DNA of 64,000 bases from Candidatus Sulfomarinibacteraceae bacterium (GTDB taxonomy: Bacteria > Acidobacteriota > Thermoanaerobaculia > Thermoanaerobaculales > Sulfomarinibacteraceae), in contig CAWCLO010000001.1 in NCBI GenBank assembly GCA_963796455.1, positions 231,372 through 295,371 of the forward strand, in the 5' to 3' direction. A model generated the notes under the pieces. The model was given only the letters and a program-made list of their open reading frames with translations, searched no databases and was not told the DNA's origin. This document shows positions 5,887 to 62,072 of the stretch, piece by piece (within the stretch, counting starts at the first letter, position 1; each line of letters begins with the position of its first letter). The position numbers and the translations under genes were made by a program.

Positions 5887-5921
5887 CGGAGAAACCGCAG
5901 ATCACGCAGATGAACGCAGAT
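5887..5921 (+). repeat. dispersed 35-nt motif CGGAGAAACCGCAGATCACGCAGATGAACGCAGAT
   Basis: An exact 35/35 reverse-complement copy lies at 45769-45803, and a degenerate copy at 45519-45553. Confidence 0.9.
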
Positions 5922-5990
5922 ATCAGATCGCAATAGGTGACGTGCAACCAAACCGATCACCGGAGCAACAGGCCCGCGAGCGCCGGAGGC

Positions 5991-6066
5991 GCGACAGATT
6001 ATTAGCCTGGGGCTCACGCTCCAGGTTTGGCGACCACACAAATTTATGAGCCCTGAAGGGGCGACA
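5991..6066 (+). repeat. dispersed ~76-nt element (GCGACAGA..AGCCTGGGGC..GAGCCCTGAAGGGGCGACA)
   Basis: A similar copy in reverse orientation lies at about 18431-18507. The alignment is by eye and contains several substitutions and indels. Confidence 0.7.
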
Positions 6067-17734: not shown

Positions 17735-18388
17735 ATGAATCGCTACGACGACCTCTACCGGCAGACCCCAGACGTCTTCGGGCCCCTGGCCGATCCGATT
17801 CTCGAAAGATTCACGGATCTCATCGACAGCACGCGGCCGGTCCTCGATATCGGATGTGGCCAGGGTCGAAACAGCCTCTTTCTCGCACGAAGAGGGATCG
17901 CCGTCCACGCACTCGATCCATCCGCCGAGGCTGTGCGCACGGTGGCAGAGGGGGCGGAGCACCAGAGGCTGTCGATCCAGACCGTTCACGGCGGTTTCGA
18001 CGATGTCGTACCGGTAGCCGGCGGCTTCGGCACGATCCTCGTCTTTGGCCTGATTCCGGACCTCCGCCGAGAACAGGTCTCGAGGCTCGCGGCGGCCGTG
18101 GAGCAGCATCTGGGGCCGGGCGGCCTGCTCTTCATCACTGCCTTCGGCACGTGGGATCCCTCGTACGAACGTCACCGGAGCGATTGGACGGAGGCCGAAG
18201 AGAATTCCTACTGCTCGTTGGACGGTTTGATCCGGACCTATCTCGAACCGGGTGAGCTGGCGGCACTCTTTCCCGCAATGACGGTGCTTCACTCGTGGGA
18301 GGGGTTGGGCCCCGAACACCGCCACGGCGACGGGCCCCTCGAGCGCCACGGCAGGGCAGAGGCGGTGCTGCGCCAAACGACTTCATGA
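17735..18388 (+). CDS. class I SAM-dependent methyltransferase (TehB-like)
   Basis: SAM motif VLDIGCGQGRNSLFLA. Start taken at M13 of the ORF. Confidence 0.75.
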   Translation: MNRYDDLYRQTPDVFGPLADPILERFTDLIDSTRPVLDIGCGQGRNSLFLARRGIAVHALDPSAEAVRTVAEGAEHQRLSIQTVHGGFDDVVPVAGGFGTILVFGLIPDLRREQVSRLAAAVEQHLGPGGLLFITAFGTWDPSYERHRSDWTEAEENSYCSLDGLIRTYLEPGELAALFPAMTVLHSWEGLGPEHRHGDGPLERHGRAEAVLRQTTS

Positions 18389-18687
18389 TGTCATCCTGAG
18401 CGGATGCGGCGCCGAGCGGCGGCAGATTATTCTGTCGCCCTTTCAGGGCTCTCTTCATTTTTGATCCCGAATATCTGGGTCTCACGCCCCAGGCTATTCT
18501 CTGTCGCCGCTTCGCGGCTTTGCTTCACCGTCATCAAAAAACTGGTTCCCCGGATAACCCGTGGGCGGGCCCTAAAGGACCCGCCTACAGAATCTATGCT
18601 GATCTCGAGCTGTCGGCGCGTGCCAGGACACACCGGCAAGGCAGAGGCTGAACTGCGACGAGGGGATTCATGATGTCATCCTGAGCG
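18382..18687. repeat. composite repeat unit bounded by a 21-nt direct repeat TTCATGATGTCATCCTGAGCG
   Basis: The 21-mer is exact at 18382-18402, where it contains the methyltransferase TGA stop, and at 18667-18687. The interior holds the ~76-nt element (reverse copy of 5991-6066) and the hairpin GGGCGGGCCCTAAAGGACCCGCC. Confidence 0.85.
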
Positions 18688-18756
18688 AAGCGCCTTTTGC
18701 GCGAAGTCGAAGGATCTAAGCGACTCACTCTGGTTGACGACTCGATCATCGGATCT

Positions 18757-24799: not shown

Positions 24800-24820
24800 C
24801 TGGATGCTGGATGCTGGGTC
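24800..24820 (+). repeat. heptamer array (CTGGATG) x3
   Basis: It starts 4 nt after the TAA stop at 24793-24795. Its inverted partner lies at 25713-25741. Confidence 0.9.
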
Positions 24821-24944
24821 ACTCGAGTCCAAGACAGAGTCTCAGACGGCGATCAGGGACGGCGACAGCGATCAGCCTCAGCGACAGGGATCCGCGATCA
24901 GTGTTCAGCGTCAGCGAACAGTCATCAGCGACAGCAAACGGCAC

Positions 24945-25298
24945 TCACTTTCTCGGGTTCAATAGCCGCCACGTCATGGCACGGACCTGATCGAAGGCGT
25001 TCATCGCTTCAATGGCTCCGTTCAGGCTGATCGCTCCGGCGTGGGCGAGGAGCTGCAAGTGGCTGTCGACCTCTTTGGCCGAGGCGTAGGCGATTCGCCA
25101 GTGGTTCAACCGGTCTCTACCGAAGCGGCCGTGACCTTCTGCCAGGTTCGCAGGGACTGAACTCGCCGATCGGACTACCTGATCGGCTATCGACTTCAGC
25201 GGAGCTGGAACTCTCATCACAAGCTTGATCGCGATGCCTGCTGCTTCGAGGGCTTTTGAGTGGGCAACGAGGTTGGTGTTCGTCGCGGCGTTGGACAT
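24945..25298 (-). CDS. four-helix-bundle protein (23S rRNA intervening-sequence protein / Avd-like family)
   Basis: Family pattern IADQVVRSASSVPANLAEGHGRF...AYASAKEVDSHLQLL. ATG at 25298 lies 5 nt after GGAGGTG. 107 of 117 aa are identical to the copy at 32072..32425. Confidence 0.85.
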   Translation of the reverse strand: MSNAATNTNLVAHSKALEAAGIAIKLVMRVPAPLKSIADQVVRSASSVPANLAEGHGRFGRDRLNHWRIAYASAKEVDSHLQLLAHAGAISLNGAIEAMNAFDQVRAMTWRLLNPRK

Positions 25299-25301
25299 GG
25301 T

Positions 25302-25431
25302 CACCTCCGGGTCGTTCATTCCCCTACCCACAAGCCGGTGTGGCGGCCGATGTCAAGGATGCCCTGCACCCTGCCTGTCCTTGACATCGGCCGCCCACCG
25401 GCTACCCCTTCCTTGGAACGACCCGGAGGTG
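25302..25431 (-). promoter_or_regulatory. long hairpin sequestering the SD of the 4HB gene
   Basis: The outer 16-bp stem pairs CACCTCCGGGTCGTTC (25302-25317) with GAACGACCCGGAGGTG (25416-25431). An inner stem of about 25 bp pairs 25331-25359 with 25378-25405. In gene sense, the 3' arm contains the GGAGG just upstream of the ATG. Confidence 0.7.
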
Positions 25432-25712
25432 GCCATTTCGCCGACTAGACTCCTGATCGCTGCCGCCGATCGCTGACCGCTGTTCCCTGTCGCTGCCCCC
25501 TGATCGCTGTTCCCTGTCGCTGCCGCTGGTCCCTGACGCTGTCCCTGTTCGCTGTTGCCTGTCGCTGGCGCTGGACACTGTCGCTGCCGCTGCAATTCGG
25601 GAACGTGATCGGGTACGTGCCAACCGCGATCCGGATATGCCAATAAGCAACCGTGAGTCCTGGTCGAGCCATGGGGCAATTCCACCTGGCGAATTTTCTT
25701 GACGGCAGTTTT

Positions 25713-25741
25713 CCAGCATCTGAAATCCGGCATCCAGCGTC
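25713..25741 (-). repeat. heptamer array (CCAGCAT/CCGGCAT on plus strand, CTGGATG family in the sense of phnE)
   Basis: It lies about 41 nt downstream of the phnE stop and is the inverted partner of 24800-24820. Confidence 0.8.
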
Positions 25742-31884: not shown

Positions 31885-31927
31885 AGGCCGACCGGTAATT
31901 TCGTTCCGAGCACGCGCCACTCTCTCA

Positions 31928-32042
31928 ATGTCATCCTGAGCGGAGCGCCCCGGCGCGTAGTCGAAGGATCTGCAGATTCGGATTTTTACAGGCCGTCCCA
32001 TAGATACTTCGACTCCGGCTTCGCCTCCGCTCAGGATGACAT
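31928..32042. repeat. cloverleaf-like palindromic element (GTCATCCTGAGCG family), copy 1
   Basis: Termini ATGTCATCCTGAGCGGAG and CTCCGCTCAGGATGACAT pair with each other. There is an inner stem GTCGAAGGATCT/AGATACTTCGAC and a side hairpin GCGCCCCGGCGC. Confidence 0.9.
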
Positions 32043-32071
32043 CCGGGGACGGCAGCGACAGAGAGCAGCAA

Positions 32072-32425
32072 TCACCTCGTCGGGTTCAACAGGCGCCAGG
32101 TCATGGCACGGACCTGATCGAAGGCGTGCATCGCTTCACTGGCTCCATTCCTGCTGATCGCCCCAGCGTGAGCGAGAAGCTGCAAGTGGCTGTCAACATC
32201 TTTCGCCGAGGCGTAGGCGATCCTCCAGTGGTTCAACCGGTCTCTACCGAATCGGCCGTGCCCTTCTGCCAGGTTCGCAGGGACTGAACTCGCCGATCGG
32301 ATCACTTGATCGGCTATGGACTTCAGCGGAGCTGGAACCCTCATCACAAGCTTGATGGCGATACCTGCTGCTTCGAGGGCTTTCGAGTGTGCAGCGAGAT
32401 CGGTGTTCGTGGCGGCTGAGGACAT
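32072..32425 (-). CDS. four-helix-bundle protein (23S rRNA IVS protein / Avd-like family), paralog
   Basis: 107/117 aa identical to 24945..25298. ATG at 32425 follows GGAGGCG. Confidence 0.85.
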   Translation of the reverse strand: MSSAATNTDLAAHSKALEAAGIAIKLVMRVPAPLKSIADQVIRSASSVPANLAEGHGRFGRDRLNHWRIAYASAKDVDSHLQLLAHAGAISRNGASEAMHAFDQVRAMTWRLLNPTR

Positions 32426-32430
32426 GGTCG

Positions 32431-32556
32431 CCTCCGGGTCGTTCATGCCCATACCCACAAGCCGGTGTGGCGGCCGATGTCAAGGATGCCCTGCACCTTG
32501 CCTGTCCTTGACATCGGCCGCCCACCGGCTACCCGTACTGTTGAACGACCCGGAGG
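32431..32556 (-). promoter_or_regulatory. long hairpin sequestering the SD of the second 4HB gene
   Basis: The outer stem pairs CCTCCGGGTCGTTC (32431-32444) with GAACGACCCGGAGG (32543-32556). The inner stem is the same GCCGGTGTGGCGGCCGATGTCAAGGA / TCCTTGACATCGGCCGCCCACCGGC as in copy 1. Confidence 0.7.
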
Positions 32557-32809
32557 TGGGCACGCCGTCGCTGAACCTGATTGCTGCCGCTGAACTCTGA
32601 TCGCTGATCGCTGTTCGCCGTCCCTGTTCGCTGTTGCCTGTCGCTGACGCTGGACACTGTCGCTGCCGCTGCAATTCGGACGCGGGCACGGGCACGGGCA
32701 CGGGCACGGGCAACCGCGAACCGGATATGCCAAAAACCAATCCGTAAGCCACTTGTTGTAAGGAGGGAAACTCCATGTGACGATCTGTTTTGGACAACAG
32801 TGCACGCAA

Positions 32810-36492: not shown

Positions 36493-36522
36493 GGGGCGAG
36501 TTTAGCGCGACCCGGGAGTCAA

Positions 36523-37082
36523 GTTTTGAGTTTTGAGTTTTGGGTTTTGAGTTCGGGCCCGTTTCGCGTTCCATTCGACCGGCTGGCGAAGGGGCGGAGG
36601 GGCGGAGGAGAAAGGGGGAACAAGCAACACGATGCTGGATGCTGGATGCTCGATCCCGAGCCCGAGCCCGTTGCCGTTACCGAACAGGGAAAGGGGGAAA
36701 GGGAGAAAGGGAGAACCGGCCGGCACTGATTTCGCCTGCATGCGAATGTCGCCTCCTGATGTCATCCTGAGCGGAGCGCCTTCGGCGCGTAGTCGAAGGA
36801 TCTGCGGACCGAAGACTGTTCCGTCCATCCCATAGATCCTTCGACTTCGCCCCCTGTGGGGCTACGCTCAGGATGACATCTTGAACGACAGTTCCGTTCC
36901 CGTTCCCGTTCCCGAAAGGGTGAAAGGGTGAAAGGGTGAAAGGGAGAAAGGGAGAAAGGGAGAAAGGGAGAACCGTACCGGAAGCGACGGACGTGATAAG
37001 ATCTGGTCCTCTGCTCCTCTGCTCCTCTGCTCCTCTGCTCCTCTGCTCCTCTGCTCCTCTGCTCCTCTGCTCCTCTGCTCCC
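36523..37082. repeat. microsatellite hotspot: at least 8 distinct 6-8 nt tandem arrays around one palindromic element
   Basis: Arrays: GTTTTGA x5 (36523-36557); GGGGCGGA x2 (36591-36618); GATGCTG x3 (36631-36653); CCCGAG x2; GGGAAAG/GGAGAAA (36687-36715); CGTTCC x4 (36891-36914); GAAAGGGT/A x7 (36914-36972); CCTCTGCT x9 (37007-37082). Confidence 0.95.
36758..36880. repeat. cloverleaf-like palindromic element (GTCATCCTGAGCG family), copy 2
   Basis: Termini GATGTCATCCTGAGCG...CGCTCAGGATGACATC. The inner 13-bp stem AGTCGAAGGATCT/AGATCCTTCGACT is perfect. Side hairpins are GCGCCTTCGGCGC and GCCCCCTGTGGGGC. Confidence 0.9.
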
Positions 37083-38701: not shown

Positions 38702-38730
38702 GTTTTGAGGTTTGAGGTTTGAGGTTGGAG
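38702..38730 (+). repeat. heptamer array (GTTTTGAG, GTTTGAG x2, GTTGGAG)
   Basis: It starts 2 nt after the TAA stop at 38697-38699. Confidence 0.9.
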
Positions 38731-38847
38731 TTCCAATCCACAACCCGGAATGCGAATTCGAAAACCGGGTTCCCGTCCGCCCACACCCAGACCGAATCAG
38801 AAAAAGAGCAATTGCAAACTGTGCTTGCTTCCACCAGTCTGGCGCCC

Positions 38848-38886
38848 AACTCAAAACTCAACACTCAAAACTCAAAACTCAAAACT
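38848..38886 (-). repeat. heptamer array (ACTCAAA x5 on plus strand), inverted partner of 38702-38730
   Basis: Direct reading. It is the reverse complement of the TTTGAGT family. Confidence 0.9.
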
Positions 38887-40301: not shown

Positions 40302-41708
40302 TTGGCTCAGCTTTTTGCAGAAAACCCGCTGGAGGCGTTCGAGCCCACGGCCCCGGCTGAAGTACCATGGAGCCCGGAAGTGGAGGCATCGATGGGCCAC
40401 CTTGTCGGCAAAGATATTTATCGCCAGCTCGGTACAAAAATCGACAACCTGGCGACTCGAACACCTTGGAACGAGACGCTTTACGAGATCCTGACCGAGC
40501 TCTACACTCCCCAGGAAGCCGAACTGGTGGTCCGTATGCCCTACGGGTTGTCGACTGCCAAGCGCCTCGTTTCGGTCACCGGATATGACGAGGCACCCCT
40601 GCAGCATCTCCTCGCCAGTCTGTGCAGCAAGGGTCTGGTCATGGACATCGAACTCGGTGGAAGATATCGCTATACCGTATCGCCTCTGGTCATCGGAATC
40701 TTCGAACTCACCATGATGCGTACCGGTCCGGATCTCGACCGTAAGAAAATCGCCACCCTCTTCCACCAATACATGGGCCCCGACGGAGTTTTCCACGACG
40801 CCAATTATGCGCACGGCGAAACGACGACGATCATGAGGGCCCTACCCCACGAGGGCACCATCCGCGACGAAGATTTTGTCGAGATTCTCGACTACGAAAA
40901 AGCGCGCGAGATCGTCAGCCGCGCGCGTCGATTCTCGATGGGCATTTGTTCGTGTCGCCACGAGAAGCACCACCTCGGTCAGAGTTGCCGGGCCGAAGCG
41001 CCGATGGACAACTGTTCGTCGATGGATTATTCGGCGGACTTTTTGATTCGCAACGATCTTGCCCGCGAGGTCAGCCGCGAGGAGATGATCGACAATATCG
41101 ACCGCTCACGAGACCTCGGTCTCGTCATGAATGCGGACAATGTGCAGCGCAACGTCACCTTTATCTGCCACTGTTGCGGATGCTGCTGCAACGCCCTCGC
41201 CGGTTTGACCGAGCACGGATACACCGAATCGATCGTGACCTCCAGTTATATTGCCGTAACTGATGACGAGATCTGCAAGGGCTGCAACTTTTGTGAAAAG
41301 GCATGTCCAGTGGATGCCATTTCGATGGTGCCGAATGACAACCCCCAAACCAAAAAGAAGAAGAAGCCGGCAATCGATTTCGAGTTCTGTCTCGGCTGCG
41401 GTGTGTGTGCCAATGCCTGTTCGACTGGGGCGATGAAGCTCGACGAACGCGAGCAGCGAGTGATTCCGCCGGAAAGCACCTTCCAACGGGTGATTCTCTC
41501 GGCGCTCGATCGCGGAACTCTTCAGAATCAACTCTTCGACGATCCATCGAGCACCAGCCAGGCCTTCCTGCGCGCTTTCGTCGGCGGCTTTCTCAAACTG
41601 CCCCCGGTCAAAAAGGCGCTGCTCAGCAATCAGTTACGGTCACGTTTCTTGAGCGCAATGGAAGGCGGGGTCCGCAAGCAGGGAAAGAGTTGGGCAGCGG
41701 AGATCTAG
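40302..41708 (+). CDS. 4Fe-4S dicluster domain-containing protein (Cys-rich, CHCCGCCC motif)
   Basis: Two ferredoxin-type motifs (CKGCNFCEKACP, CLGCGVCANACS), plus CSCRHEKHHLGQSC and FICHCCGCCCNAL. The start is either TTG 40302 or ATG 40392. Confidence 0.75.
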   Translation: MAQLFAENPLEAFEPTAPAEVPWSPEVEASMGHLVGKDIYRQLGTKIDNLATRTPWNETLYEILTELYTPQEAELVVRMPYGLSTAKRLVSVTGYDEAPLQHLLASLCSKGLVMDIELGGRYRYTVSPLVIGIFELTMMRTGPDLDRKKIATLFHQYMGPDGVFHDANYAHGETTTIMRALPHEGTIRDEDFVEILDYEKAREIVSRARRFSMGICSCRHEKHHLGQSCRAEAPMDNCSSMDYSADFLIRNDLAREVSREEMIDNIDRSRDLGLVMNADNVQRNVTFICHCCGCCCNALAGLTEHGYTESIVTSSYIAVTDDEICKGCNFCEKACPVDAISMVPNDNPQTKKKKKPAIDFEFCLGCGVCANACSTGAMKLDEREQRVIPPESTFQRVILSALDRGTLQNQLFDDPSSTSQAFLRAFVGGFLKLPPVKKALLSNQLRSRFLSAMEGGVRKQGKSWAAEI

Positions 41709-45518: not shown

Positions 45519-45803
45519 CGGAGAGACCGCTGATAGCGCAGATGGGCGCAGATAGTCGAACCGTGTTTTGATTTTCGTGTCGTCGATCAACATTTCCAGC
45601 GACTTCGGCAACGTTGAACCGCAAAGTTCATTTTTGACCAAATCAAACAGCTAACCTGCGGGGTCAATGCGTTGCCGGCTGGTGGCCCGACGTCTTTGTC
45701 TTGCAGGTCCTCAACGGGAGCGAGAGACGTGAGCGGTATTCGAGTCCGTTCAATCGCCGGGCCCGGAAATCTGCGTTCATCTGCGTGATCTGCGGTTTCT
45801 CCG
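45519..45803. repeat. MITE-like unit: degenerate and exact copies of the 35-nt CGCAGAT motif in inverted orientation around a ~215-bp AT-richer core
   Basis: 45519-45553 (CGGAGAGACCGCTGATAGCGCAGATGGGCGCAGAT) faces 45769-45803, which is the exact reverse complement of 5887-5921. Confidence 0.6.
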
Positions 45804-50781: not shown

Positions 50782-50874
50782 GGCTATGGGCTGTGGTATT
50801 GGGGCTATGGGGCTATGGGGCTATGGGGCTATGGGGCTATGAGGCTATGAGGCTTTTGGGGCTCTGAGGTTGTG
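50782..50874 (+). repeat. GGCTATG/GGGCTATG/AGGCTATG tandem array
   Basis: It begins on the base after the terminator T-run and has about 11 units of 7-8 nt. Confidence 0.95.
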
Positions 50875-60600: not shown

Positions 60601-60936
60601 AGTCTGGACCTGGATTCCCACCACGGCGCCACGGCGCCGCGCAAGAACCCGCAGGATGTGGCGCCGCAGGCTTCGGGAGGGCACAACGACCCGTATCGGG
60701 ATCGCCAGATGCTCGACGCCGGCGCCAAACAAATTCTCGATTTCTTCGAGCAGCCGCTCCTCTGTCGCGCGGGCGCCTCGGCAGGAAATGATACGTGATC
60801 GGATTTCAGAAAGTTGATTCATCGGGACGAATCCATGGGACCACGGGCGGAGGGAGGTGTCAACACGACCCTTCGAGAGCGGGTTGTGCAGTGAAAGATC
60901 GTGCTTCAAATCAGCGAGTTCAAGGCCACGTGTCAC
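57607..60936 (-). CDS. addB: AddB-like PD-(D/E)XK nuclease/inactive-helicase subunit with a C-terminal Fe-S cysteine cluster
   Basis: About 1100 aa, encoded upstream of addA. C-terminal nuclease motif VDYKAAKP and the cysteine triad CSYCAVAEAC. I saw no Walker A. The start may be M39 (60822). Confidence 0.75.
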   Translation of the reverse strand: MTRGLELADLKHDLSLHNPLSKGRVDTSLRPWSHGFVPMNQLSEIRSRIISCRGARATEERLLEEIENLFGAGVEHLAIPIRVVVPSRSLRRHILRVLARRRGAVVGIQVQTLFGLALEVAARSGLTPPRADAGFEVQVRRTAATEPTLRTSLDGLTDGYDAVVGAVRDLLDAGFMPGNEEGVLERIDDVAGEVAPERLVRSASLVRLAASSFESAEDLGLRRSMRALQLAEDALQIAGPDLLPTRALLVHGFADVTGVAADLLVAMIRVLGGTVMLDRPPDPAAPERDDLGGAYLTRLDERMNHLDHETDRRQDPPPEIELAEAPDVEAEARWVAERIRGLLDDGVEAEDVAVVGRTLDSMALPLRRHFHRLGVPFSGAGAVVPGAGPKRRVGRLTELLRRGPATRVDQWIEARADNEASTELLLGLRVLGVLSLADLATQPDKAVPPRGVRLPLAIGREDEVDGGDGSSRRLAKDVLRSAVAEAGILVSLLERSPERASAGDCSRHTAAVLGALGWSEGTPESRAVHEALDGLCREVPASYELAREEWLKLLADRLDGVRDVPLGGDGAGVQVLTVMESRARTFEHLHVVGLNRGVFPRVGHEDPMLPEAIRARLAADVLPEMPVKGRSADEERYLFAQLLSSAPSAVLSWHVFGSEGCLTPSPFVDRLRRREGVGDPMSVPQLWSNDEIASRPRPAYEIAVLAAPLAGPGGTGQLLEAAIAEGLCDSGSGFGTVSPGLLATARADLLAAVERLSDETGPGAWFGFTGEIDEKGDDDLWVTHAEGIGTCPWRAFVQRRLGVLPMPDPLLGLPGIDGPMVGQVVHGVLETVVADAVGNLGGLAELVSRDPVSVRWPDAGSLNDLVNREAHRVATAEGLASMGMAPLLAARARQFLEIERRLEWNTGALPSVLGSEVEGRTSIPDVGHQLRFRADRVDNVDGVTVLVDYKAAKPAVEASTEPSRSTNIRTLIARGRLLQAAAYSRADGVPDGVGKYLYLKPKDDWKDEIREIAIDGDNADDMEVFETAIRTIVQGRSVGIAFPRVEEADGRAAKHCSYCAVAEACRRDDSAFRRDLVRFMNGDENSGDRVVECARSLWWLGIARAETDQ

Positions 60937-60997
60937 TACTGTCCAATAAAAATCGTCATTTGACGGTGCCCACCTGACAACACGAGGTTTATGGGTT

Positions 60998-61340
60998 GAT
61001 TGTTGGCATTTCCGGTTCGTGGTTGCGCCGCGTCCGAGTCGGCGTCCGTGCCCGTATTACAGCGGCAGCGACAGTGTCCAGGGGCAGCGACAGGAACCAG
61101 CGATCAGTGTTCAGCAACAGGGAACAGCGGCAGTGGCAGCAATCCGGTGCAGTGATGGCGTGGTCACCTCCGGGGCGTTCAACAGAAGGAAGAGCCGCTG
61201 TGGTGTAGGCGTCTCGCCTGCCCACCGTGCGGCCGAGACGGCCGCACCACAAAGACCGGAGCCCCGAAGAAGTGAGTGCTGTTCGCTGTCCCGGCCGCTG
61301 ATCGCTGACGCTGAATCCTGTTCGCTGTCGCTGGACGCTT
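60998..61340 (+). repeat. ORF-less, inverted relative of the 4HB-gene element
   Basis: It starts TTGGCATTTCCGG, matching the reverse complement of the CCGGATATGCCAA end. It has CAGCGAC arrays (61058-61145), a degenerate hairpin core with CACCTCCGGGGCGTTC and GTGCGGCCGAGACGGCCGCAC (61163-61275), and GTCGCTG arrays (61277-61337). There is no 4HB ORF. Confidence 0.75.
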
Positions 61341-61466
61341 ATCGAGACTCCTGGTTGGAAAAGAGTGGTCACGAGTGAAGAGTGATGGGCTCCCGGGAGG
61401 CGGGCCGGCTCAACCCCTGACCCTGAACTCCAGACTCTTCTCGCGACGGCGAGGCGATCAACGTTT

Positions 61467-61967: not shown

Positions 61968-62072
61968 AGGCTTGGGGCTTGAGGCCCGGGGCTTGAACAG
62001 ACCGGATCGCGTTCGGTGTGCCTCAAGCCTCACGCCTCAGGCCCCAGGTCCCAGGTCCCAGGTCTCAGGCCC
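61968..62072. repeat. inverted heptamer arrays filling a convergent spacer (GGCTTGA type facing CCTCAAG/CCCAGGT type)
   Basis: The left array (61968-61998) starts on the base after the TGA. The right array (62021-62072) runs up to the sppA stop. GGCTTGAGGC pairs with GCCTCAAGCC. Confidence 0.9.

Follow-up and report, generated by a model that had tools for sequence, protein, structure and literature searches.

Intervening sequences (IVSs) and the S23p/four-helix-bundle (4HB) open reading frames (ORFs) of bacterial rRNA have been known since about 1990. Whether rRNA IVSs are mobile, and what their proteins do, has never been settled (PMC4990558). A stretch of 64,000 nucleotides from a Candidatus Sulfomarinibacteraceae genome (contig CAWCLO010000001.1, positions 231,372 to 295,371; hereafter the window) poses this question outside rRNA: it carries, at two places, a gene for a 4HB protein of the IVS family set between inverse arrays of 7-nt repeats, and the sole RNAs that Rfam detects in the window are a tRNA and an Acido-Lenti-1 RNA, with rRNA not among them. 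The original prediction took these units for a self-contained, possibly mobile or once-mobile RNA-protein module that had not been described before. Does the unit move, by what means, and why does it keep a protein gene? When the window is analyzed together with relatives of the protein, the unit is probably a multi-copy, non-autonomous DNA transposable element of ~0.9 kb, a free-living relative of the rRNA IVS whose sole gene encodes a PF05635/TIGR02436 4HB protein.

The element is mobile and multi-copy

When one genome per species was scanned, a few Acidobacteriota metagenome-assembled genomes (MAGs), labelled Holophagae or Ca. Sulfomarinibacteraceae, yielded at least 239 confirmed relatives of the protein at 75-90% identity. 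The figures on termini, spread and same-MAG neighbors of relatives refer to the best 80 of these (loci L001-L080), all of which have the core of array, hairpin, ORF and inverse array, with up to 27 copies per MAG. Two types of terminal inverted repeat (TIR) bound this core. Type I ends (CACTGCTGTCCAA...TTGGACAAGAGTG) are found in the MAG CAVZOK and in the window, and the 9-bp sequences that flank them in relatives are identical at 10 of 20 loci and agree in at least eight of nine positions at 14, against a control maximum of 4/9. Other MAGs have type II ends, a repeat of ~25 bp (GGYTCATCCGGGAAAGCGTGAGG...CCTCACGGAATTCCGGATGARCC; GGYTCATCCGG...CCGGATGARCC), whose 8-bp flanks are identical at 12 of 46 loci and agree in at least seven of eight positions at 28 (control maximum 5/8), the identity of target-site duplications (TSDs) of either length being partly inflated where an insertion sits in a tandem array. 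Many insertions do lie in register within pre-existing heptamer arrays, for example (ATGCAGG)n, (ATACTCG)n and (AACGTTN)n; the locus L016 has a clean duplication outside arrays (CCATTCGAT).

The relatives also record how the element has spread. For 71 of the 80 copies the nearest neighbor in sequence lies in the same MAG, at a median identity of 95.7% and a maximum of 99.6%, and near-identical copies (up to this maximum) occupy different sites with different duplications. Copies have spread recently within genomes. Insertion polymorphism among relatives is seen at the site of one window copy (copy A, below), for which orthologous regions were drawn from metagenomes with the neighboring DUF1684 gene as the query. 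The pair DUF1684(+)/ABC permease(-) is kept in four contigs (L105, L106, L108 and L110; permease 86-98% identical), and the element is absent between the two genes in all four, its site being occupied by a ~300-aa gene and two terminator hairpins. In L105 (1268-2230), L106 and L108 this gene begins with an N-terminal signal-like sequence and is followed by two CAATTC...GAATTG hairpins; in L110 a related element with the same hairpin family lies upstream of DUF1684, where the window is empty. The empty sites that were to be sought in relatives were found in part, as the element is absent from the site and the site, which holds another gene, is not base-precise. With its TIRs, TSDs of 8 or 9 bp, copy number and insertion polymorphism, the element is mobile, as had been suspected.

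The window holds three copies, A (~24820-25712), B (31917-32802) and C (60934-61367), and these are the only places where it matches the outer TIR pattern CACTNNTGTCCAA...TTGGANNAGAGTG at up to one mismatch. The TIR CACTNNTGTCCAA recurs without change in ~20 relatives, and 20 relatives have a homologous type I TIR. Much of the predicted layout is borne out: A and B point the same way, their minus-strand genes encode 117-aa proteins identical at 107 of 117 positions, and both copies have the 7-nt arrays, the inverse arrays, a hairpin (135 nt) and the shared end GCAATTCGG...CCGGATATGCCAA. Annotation of the neighbors places both in spacers between convergent housekeeping genes, A between DUF1684(+) and the ABC permease(-) and B between VWA-like(+) and PDZ(-) genes; a PD-(D/E)XK nuclease and a DUF4442 gene are also among the neighbors of the element copies. 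The extent had to be revised, in that the predicted bounds (24846-25650 and 32043-32740) are too short and the true ends are the TIRs. What had been read as a conserved terminus, GCAATTCGG...CCGGATATGCCAA, is instead the relic of an ISL3-type inverted repeat within the element. It is homologous with the left repeat of type II and in the window lies inside type I ends. Nor are there only two copies, since self-BLAST of the window uncovered copy C, which is gene-less, opposite in orientation to A and B, and keeps both arrays and the relic; it is a deletion derivative of the element. On the gene strand the order of parts is outer TIR, ISL3-type relic, CAGCGAC-type array, 135-nt hairpin, ORF, inverse array and outer TIR. 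The features are as follows, with arrays called by Tandem Repeats Finder (TRF) and reading.

24800-24819, no strand: flanking (CTGGATG)n array outside copy A, with the inverse array on the opposite side at 25713-25740 (TRF, reading)
24820-24843, minus: copy A TIR, 3' end of the gene strand, CACTCGAGTCCAAGACAGAGTCTC on the plus strand
24846-24940, minus: copy A 3' heptamer array, GTCGCTG-type on the gene strand (TRF); pairs with the 5' array in minimum-free-energy (MFE) folds
24945-25298, minus: copy A 4HB gene, 117 aa (PF05635 1.7e-14, TIGR02436 2.3e-15)
25300-25434, minus: copy A hairpin of the 5' untranslated region (UTR), 135 nt (covariation; covariance model 133 bits)
25450-25592, minus: copy A 5' heptamer array, CAGCGAC-type on the gene strand (TRF, folding)
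25593-25645, minus: copy A relic GCAATTCGG...CCGGATATGCCAA, homologous to the left ISL3-type repeat of type II (comparison with L003 and other type II loci)
25698-25712, minus: copy A degenerate TIR, 5' end of the gene strand, AAACTGCCGTCAAG (reading against the TIR consensus)
31917-31926, minus: copy B right TIR remnant TGAGAGAGTG on the gene strand, with a 15-nt internal deletion (comparison with copy A)
31927-32043, no strand: unrelated 116-nt inverted-repeat element GTCATCCTGAGCGGAG...CTCCGCTCAGGATGAC nested in the copy B 3' array (reading)
32072-32425, minus: copy B 4HB gene, 117 aa (profile matches, BLAST)
32427-32561, minus: copy B 5'-UTR hairpin, 135 nt (covariance model 128 bits)
32565-32745, minus: copy B 5' heptamer array, then a (CGGGCA)5 run and the ISL3-type repeat relic (TRF, reading)
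32790-32802, minus: copy B left TIR CACTGTTGTCCAA, directly after the terminator hairpin of the PDZ gene (pattern search, reading)
60934-61367, plus: copy C, gene-less, 434 nt (BLAST, reading; covariance model weak, 16.6 bits)
60934-60946 and 61355-61367: copy C TIRs
61003-61015: copy C relic
61058-61142: copy C 5' array
61163-61276: copy C variant hairpin
61286-61344: copy C 3' array, the ORF being gone save for its last ~14 nt

Copies A and B differ by a dN of 0.046 and a dS of 0.39, with third codon positions 78% identical, and the pair is therefore not a recent segmental duplication. More generally, the copies might be thought a local duplication or ordinary paralogues embedded in generic simple-sequence DNA, because arrays of 7-8 nt are common between the genes of the window and a Fer4 gene (40302-41708) also lies between inverse GGGCTAT/ATAGCCC arrays. 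This is extremely improbable given the dS, the third copy 28 kb away in the opposite orientation, the at least 239 relatives with conserved termini and TSDs, and the confinement of CAGCGAC-type arrays in the window to the element copies. It was rejected on the dS and the copy census.

A selected gene behind a covarying hairpin

The proteins of copies A and B score 54.4 and 52.1 bits against PF05635 (cut-off 33.8 bits) and 56.7 and 53.1 bits against TIGR02436 (curated cut-off 24 bits). An AlphaFold (AF2) model is a four-helix bundle (pLDDT 92.5), for which the best Foldseek matches are XCC0516 (2gsc) and BT_0352 (2rld), both at TM 0.83, followed by Avd of the Bordetella diversity-generating retroelement (DGR; 4dwl and 8ub7, TM 0.78-0.81, root-mean-square deviation 1.6-2.0 Å, 8% identity). 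Because the family profile matches 2gsc (1.7e-31) and 2rld and finds no match to Avd, the protein is a member of the IVS-protein family that has only its fold, as modelled, in common with Avd; the predicted family and the predicted Avd-like fold both hold in this sense. The family motif Q..R.S..S.P.N.AEG..R is present, and in the alignment of relatives Q40, N51, E54 and E76 are invariant and S47 nearly so. Pairwise dN/dS among copies is ~0.16 and the ORF is intact in 70 of 73; in nearly all copies the gene evolves under purifying selection.

The fold shared with Avd, which binds reverse transcriptase (RT) and template RNA, and the structured RNA beside the gene might together suggest a retroelement-like RNA module, mobilized by an RT encoded elsewhere through DGR-like retrohoming. 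Yet TIRs with TSDs fixed at 8 or 9 bp are a signature of DDE transposition, the type II ends match ISL3 inverted repeats, and the likeness to Avd is one of fold only. No RT was found among the neighbors of the copies, as had been noted before, in a scan that did not extend to the rest of the window or to template and variable repeats. We consider a retroelement very unlikely, and rejected it on the TIRs, the TSDs and the lack of an adjoining RT.

The molecular form of the hairpin is clear from an alignment of 62 distinct hairpins, controlled with 500 shuffles and with slid alignments. It comprises 37 pairs, and 97.3% of its cells are paired, against at most 55% in the slid controls; 13 of the pairs are compensatory, with 94 cells changed on both sides, which was reached by 0 of 500 shuffles. 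G.U cells (90) exceed A.C cells (31), an excess that fits an RNA on the gene strand. The covariance model that the original prediction had proposed was built, and in the window it finds copy A at 133 bits, copy B at 128 bits and copy C weakly, at 16.6 bits, and nothing else. The hairpins of A and B are 92.6% identical, third codon positions being at 78%. At its gathering thresholds Rfam has no family for the hairpin and returns only sub-threshold matches to hairpins resembling microRNA precursors.

The basal stem of 13 bp (CACCUCCGGGUCGUU / AACGACCCGGAGGUG) is almost invariant, and in it CACCUCC pairs with the Shine-Dalgarno sequence GGAGGUG and covers an upstream ATG. This ATG, at 25319, is in frame, conserved in all relatives and located 21 nt upstream of the start of the 117-aa reading frame (the stretch 25299-25319 adding MNDPEVT-, for a 124-aa product); it is the start in many public gene calls. 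In the inner stem an invariant box, TGTCAAGG(G)/(C)CCTTGACA, occurs at 25345-25390, at 32472-32517 and in all aligned hairpins, and the pairs adjacent to it covary. The box places TTGACA on both strands, and no convincing -10 partner was found for it on either. We suggest that the likely role of the hairpin is to control 4HB translation, for example by silencing read-through transcripts: folded in such an RNA, it would hold translation off or low.

Fold-back inhibition of transposase translation is known from IS10 and IS50. The parallel is that a 5' hairpin pairs the ribosome-binding site, so that by analogy element transcripts containing the upstream arm would be translationally silent. The differences are that the controlled gene of the element is not a transposase and that its hairpin is far longer and contains the invariant TGTCAAGG/CCTTGACA box.

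Variation of the hairpin was also observed. In some copies its apical part is swapped for unrelated structured modules with the basal Shine-Dalgarno stem retained; a 196-nt form is found in L006, L016, L017, L021, L023, L024 and L026, and a 235-nt form in L057, L064, L074 and L079. At L107 (420-500) a small hairpin on its own, bearing the CCTTGACA/TGTCAAG box, stands beside (AATTCCT)n, upstream of the DUF1684 orthologue, and may be the relic of an excised or decayed element.

Inverse arrays across phyla and a proposed ISL3 link

The gene is flanked by period-7 arrays of CAGCGAC type on one side and GTCGCTG type on the other. In MFE folds of both strands these arrays pair across the hairpin and the ORF (z-scores -9.9 and -8.3), with a mean duplex energy of -114 kcal/mol versus -87.5 kcal/mol for shuffled partners. 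The two arrays could zip into a long stem that loops out the hairpin and ORF, as in rRNA IVSs, and such a stem would make insertions tolerable within transcription units. Alternatively or additionally, they may serve at the DNA level as subterminal protein-binding repeats. The 4HB protein would be a nucleic-acid-binding accessory factor needed for the propagation or the control of the element.

Distant PF05635 genes (20-45% identical) occur on plasmids of Cyanobacteriota, Bacteroidota (Riemerella), Gemmatimonadota (Gemmatirosa) and Pseudomonadota (Azospirillum). In a small, plasmid-biased sample of 20 distinct cassettes, with arrays counted by eye, the 4HB gene lies between inverse arrays in ~15, between direct arrays in two and without arrays in one or two. 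The units differ from cassette to cassette: AAGGGAA/TTCCCTT, CAGGGAA/TTCCCTG, GGGTGTA/TACACCC, GGAGATA/TATCTCC, AAGGTTC/GAACCTT, GGGAGCA/TGCTCCC, GGCAGGAG/CTCCTGCC, TCAGGAG/CTCCTGA, GGGAAAA/TTTTCCC and GAGGACG/GTCTTCT. The unit changes and complementarity is retained, which amounts to covariation of whole arrays and argues that pairing, or an equivalent symmetric recognition, is selected. Many of these cassettes stand in the middle of operons and in the same orientation, and in CRISPR-Cas and conjugation operons spacers of only tens of bases separate them from their neighbors. The 4HB gene of L085 (Pseudanabaena) stands between cas6 and cas4 with direct arrays, (AGCTAAA)15 and (AGCCAAA)10, that of L086 (Picosynechococcus) between cmr2 and cmr3, and those of L091 and L097 after a gene with a TraM-recognition domain. 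In Azospirillum the arrays can pair on the sense strand only, by way of G.U wobbles.

One distant relative comes with a transposase. On plasmid pCC7120gamma of Nostoc PCC 7120 (NC_003267.1 12962-15527; L093:663-3228) an insertion sequence (IS) of the ISL3 family carries a 4HB gene downstream of its transposase, and an 84-nt inverted repeat, 88% complementary, encloses both the 636-aa DDE_Tnp_ISL3 transposase and the 4HB gene. This repeat consists of GGTTCTTGGCAACTTTTGGTGATC followed by (GGCAGAG)n, mirrored by (CTCTGCC)n and the inverse terminus, and the IS has at least three copies, on pCC7120gamma, on pCC7120alpha and in Nostoc HK-01 (L093, L094 and L095). The type II ends of the Acidobacteriota relatives resemble ISL3 inverted repeats, such as GGTCCATCCGCATTCCCGGTGCAGG of Azospirillum and GGTTCACCGCAGG... 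of Leptolyngbya, and ISL3 elements generate duplications of 8 bp. The enzyme that moves the element would be a DDE transposase acting in trans; in the type II form, and in this form only, it would belong to the ISL3 family, in view of the match of the type II TIR to ISL3 repeats and of the 8-bp TSD. Contrary to the prediction, the unit is not self-contained: it encodes no transposase and would have to be mobilized in trans.

Several observations weigh against the transposable-cassette reading. No transposase was found in the window, its element copies included, or beside the 80 relatives by tblastn with the Nostoc ISL3 query, and five other ISL3 elements have neither a 4HB gene nor arrays, so that the Nostoc combination could be a lineage-specific capture. 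Copies A and B have no clean TSD, and the flanks of copy C (GCCACGTGT / GTCACGAGT) match at 7/9 bp; the window copies are old insertions. The inflation of TSD identity within tandem arrays and the occupied, imprecise site of copy A in relatives, both described above, belong here too, and a promoter and terminator scan of the element detected none. As for the arrays, cognate partners pair at -114 kcal/mol and non-cognate ones at -112.5 kcal/mol, with no element-specific coevolution, and the sense and antisense energies are equal, likewise in plasmid cassettes. Arrays of 7-8 nt are also common in the intergenic DNA of this genome generally, inverse arrays are not wholly specific to the gene, as the Fer4 example illustrates, and among the 20 distant cassettes are the direct and array-less ones. 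Since non-cognate partners pair equally well, array complementarity is a family trait that fits an RNA stem and DNA-level repeats alike. The notion of an RNA-protein module holds only for the 5' hairpin, with its covariation and sense-strand G.U bias; for the arrays RNA pairing is possible, and a DNA-level role fits equally.

It is quite possible, without being probable, that the arrays have a role in DNA alone, as subterminal repeats to which transposase or 4HB protein binds or as recombination substrates, in which case the RNA stem would be a by-product and the likeness to IVSs a coincidence. The Nostoc IS, whose arrays adjoin the ISL3 inverted repeats on their inner side and enclose the transposase as well, would fit such a role, as would the lack of a sense/antisense bias or cognate-partner advantage, the direct arrays of two cassettes and the insertions in register within heptamer arrays. 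In most solitary cassettes, however, the arrays are the sole inverted repeat and, within operons, close tightly around the ORF, the Azospirillum arrays pair by wobbles on the sense strand only, and the IVS precedent shows such stems to be substrates of RNase III (PMC4990558).

Whose interest the selected gene serves is a separate matter. The 4HB genes may be paralogues of benefit to the host (for example regulators, antitoxins or defence factors) in intergenic DNA rich in repeats, with the TIRs, TSDs and arrays as part of carriers resembling miniature inverted-repeat transposable elements (MITEs), which would only have hitch-hiked with the gene or captured it, and with selection acting through host fitness. 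Purifying selection on almost all copies, the co-orientation of cyanobacterial cassettes within CRISPR-Cas, conjugation and other operons, the bounding of one core by two TIR types, which looks like capture, and the absence of the 4HB gene from most ISL3 elements would all be in keeping with this. But at least 20 redundant copies per genome should relax host selection, and the ORFs are nonetheless intact in 70 of 73; the clustering of copies by genome and the 99.6% identity at new sites are expected of proliferation driven by the element; and the arrays accompany the gene across phyla with changing units, which makes them part of the cassette. We therefore regard a host benefit as an unlikely explanation of the selection, and retain the transposable cassette.

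More tentatively, PF05635 genes and inverse arrays of 7-8 nt might form a single class of mobile cassette spanning phyla, appearing as rRNA IVSs, as silent insertions in operons (CRISPR-Cas, conjugation) and as transposon cargo. A 4HB oligomer would then recognize the arrays, as DNA or RNA, and be required for spread or processing, and cycles of insertion and excision would contribute to the heptamer excess of Nostoc, Xanthomonas and these Acidobacteria. This extension is doubtful as it stands.

Known systems and other repeats

The closest known counterparts are the 23S and 16S rRNA IVSs of Coxiella, Leptospira, Xanthomonas, Brucella and CPR bacteria, encoding S23p (23S_rRNA_IVP), which have in common with the element a PF05635 protein and an ORF looped out by complementary termini, and which have long been suspected of mobility (PMC4990558; bioRxiv 2024.02.27.582315). 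In Coxiella, RNase III cleaves the terminal stem of the IVS, and inside this stem the GACAGAT heptamers upstream of the S23p ORF are variable (PMC4990558), much as tandem heptamers of GACAGCG type precede the ORF of the element. In contrast to rRNA IVSs, the element lies outside rRNA, in related soil Acidobacteria numbers in the dozens per genome, has transposon-type TIRs and 8- or 9-bp TSDs, and combines long degenerate arrays, in place of a short perfect stem, with a covarying 5' hairpin over the ribosome-binding site; its gene is maintained by purifying selection, unlike the decaying Coxiella ORF. The element supplies evidence, at the level of sequence, for the mobility long suspected of rRNA IVSs, and this evidence comes from a free-standing relative and not from an rRNA IVS itself.

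Among ISL3 ISs and their non-autonomous derivatives, the likeness is to the type II relatives, with their ISL3-like inverted repeats (GGYTCATCCGG...) and 8-bp TSD, and to the Nostoc IS, with its transposase and 4HB gene between inverse arrays. The window element departs from ISL3 ISs in that it has no transposase, its outer TIR CACTNNTGTCCAA is associated with a 9-bp TSD, and the ISL3-type repeat is present only as an internal relic. Like bacterial MITEs it has TIRs, TSDs of fixed length (in relatives), dispersed, polymorphic copies in high number, an intergenic location, nesting, no transposase and a gene-less derivative (copy C); unlike them it is not small and non-coding, copy C excepted, but at ~0.9 kb larger than is typical, with a selected protein gene and a covarying hairpin. 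Heptameric repeats are known elsewhere as intergenic tandem 7-nt arrays, sometimes in inverted pairs (PMC4692102, PMC4679880). The cyanobacterial short tandemly repeated repetitive (STRR) sequences, the GGGAATC/GGGGAYT repeats of Xanthomonas and Nostoc and the TAACTGA repeats of Beggiatoaceae are arrays of this kind, and studies of them have made no tie to PF05635 genes or transposon ends, whereas here the arrays are part or target of a mobile cassette. In the literature searched, which did not cover subscription journals, we found no description of a TIR/TSD-bounded element of this kind, of the array rule for PF05635 genes or of an ISL3 IS with a 4HB gene, in agreement with the view that the unit was previously undescribed.

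Other repeats in the window were noted in passing. The Acido-Lenti-1 RNA lies at 18474-18519 (Rfam, 45.9 bits), with a similar sequence at ~5985-6040; Acido-Lenti-1-like motifs, GACAGAT..AGCC(Y)GGGG..CCCCRGG, occur elsewhere in the window and are nested in the 5' arrays of L004, L006, L007, L011 and L012, as if the motif were itself a small mobile insert. The inverted-repeat element GTCATCCTGAGCGGAG...CTCCGCTCAGGATGAC that interrupts copy B recurs at ~36755-36880, ~18385-18420 and ~18672-18720, and one copy of it lies between direct (GAAAGGGA)n arrays. About 20 intergenic regions are crowded with 7-8-nt tandem arrays, several as inverse pairs (for example 5739-5785/6122-6151, 36522-37081, 38704-38886, 40210-40298/41744-41799, 50800-50863 and 61969-62072), and an AGTTCGG/AATTCCG pair of arrays would pair through G.U wobble. 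A 164-bp tandem repeat (243-699; 2.8 copies, 95% identity) abuts and overlaps a minus-strand tRNA gene at 684-757. Inverse copies of GGAGAAACCGCAGATCACGCAGATGAACGCAGAT at 5890-5922 and 45769-45803, ~40 kb apart and each near a (GAATTCC)n array, are probably another dispersed element family.

For the decades-old question of IVS mobility, this element family offers tractable natural test material: a free-living form that has TIRs and TSDs and has multiplied in recent bursts, an autonomous relative that encodes an ISL3 transposase, and a protein under selection in nearly all copies. The arrays that bracket PF05635 genes across six phyla, with a unit for each lineage, suggest a common logic for a very large uncharacterized protein family, and may connect it with the surplus of heptameric repeats long noted in certain bacterial genomes. 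Cassettes of this kind interrupt operons, CRISPR-Cas among them, and inflate counts of 'hypothetical proteins', so that recognizing them improves annotation.

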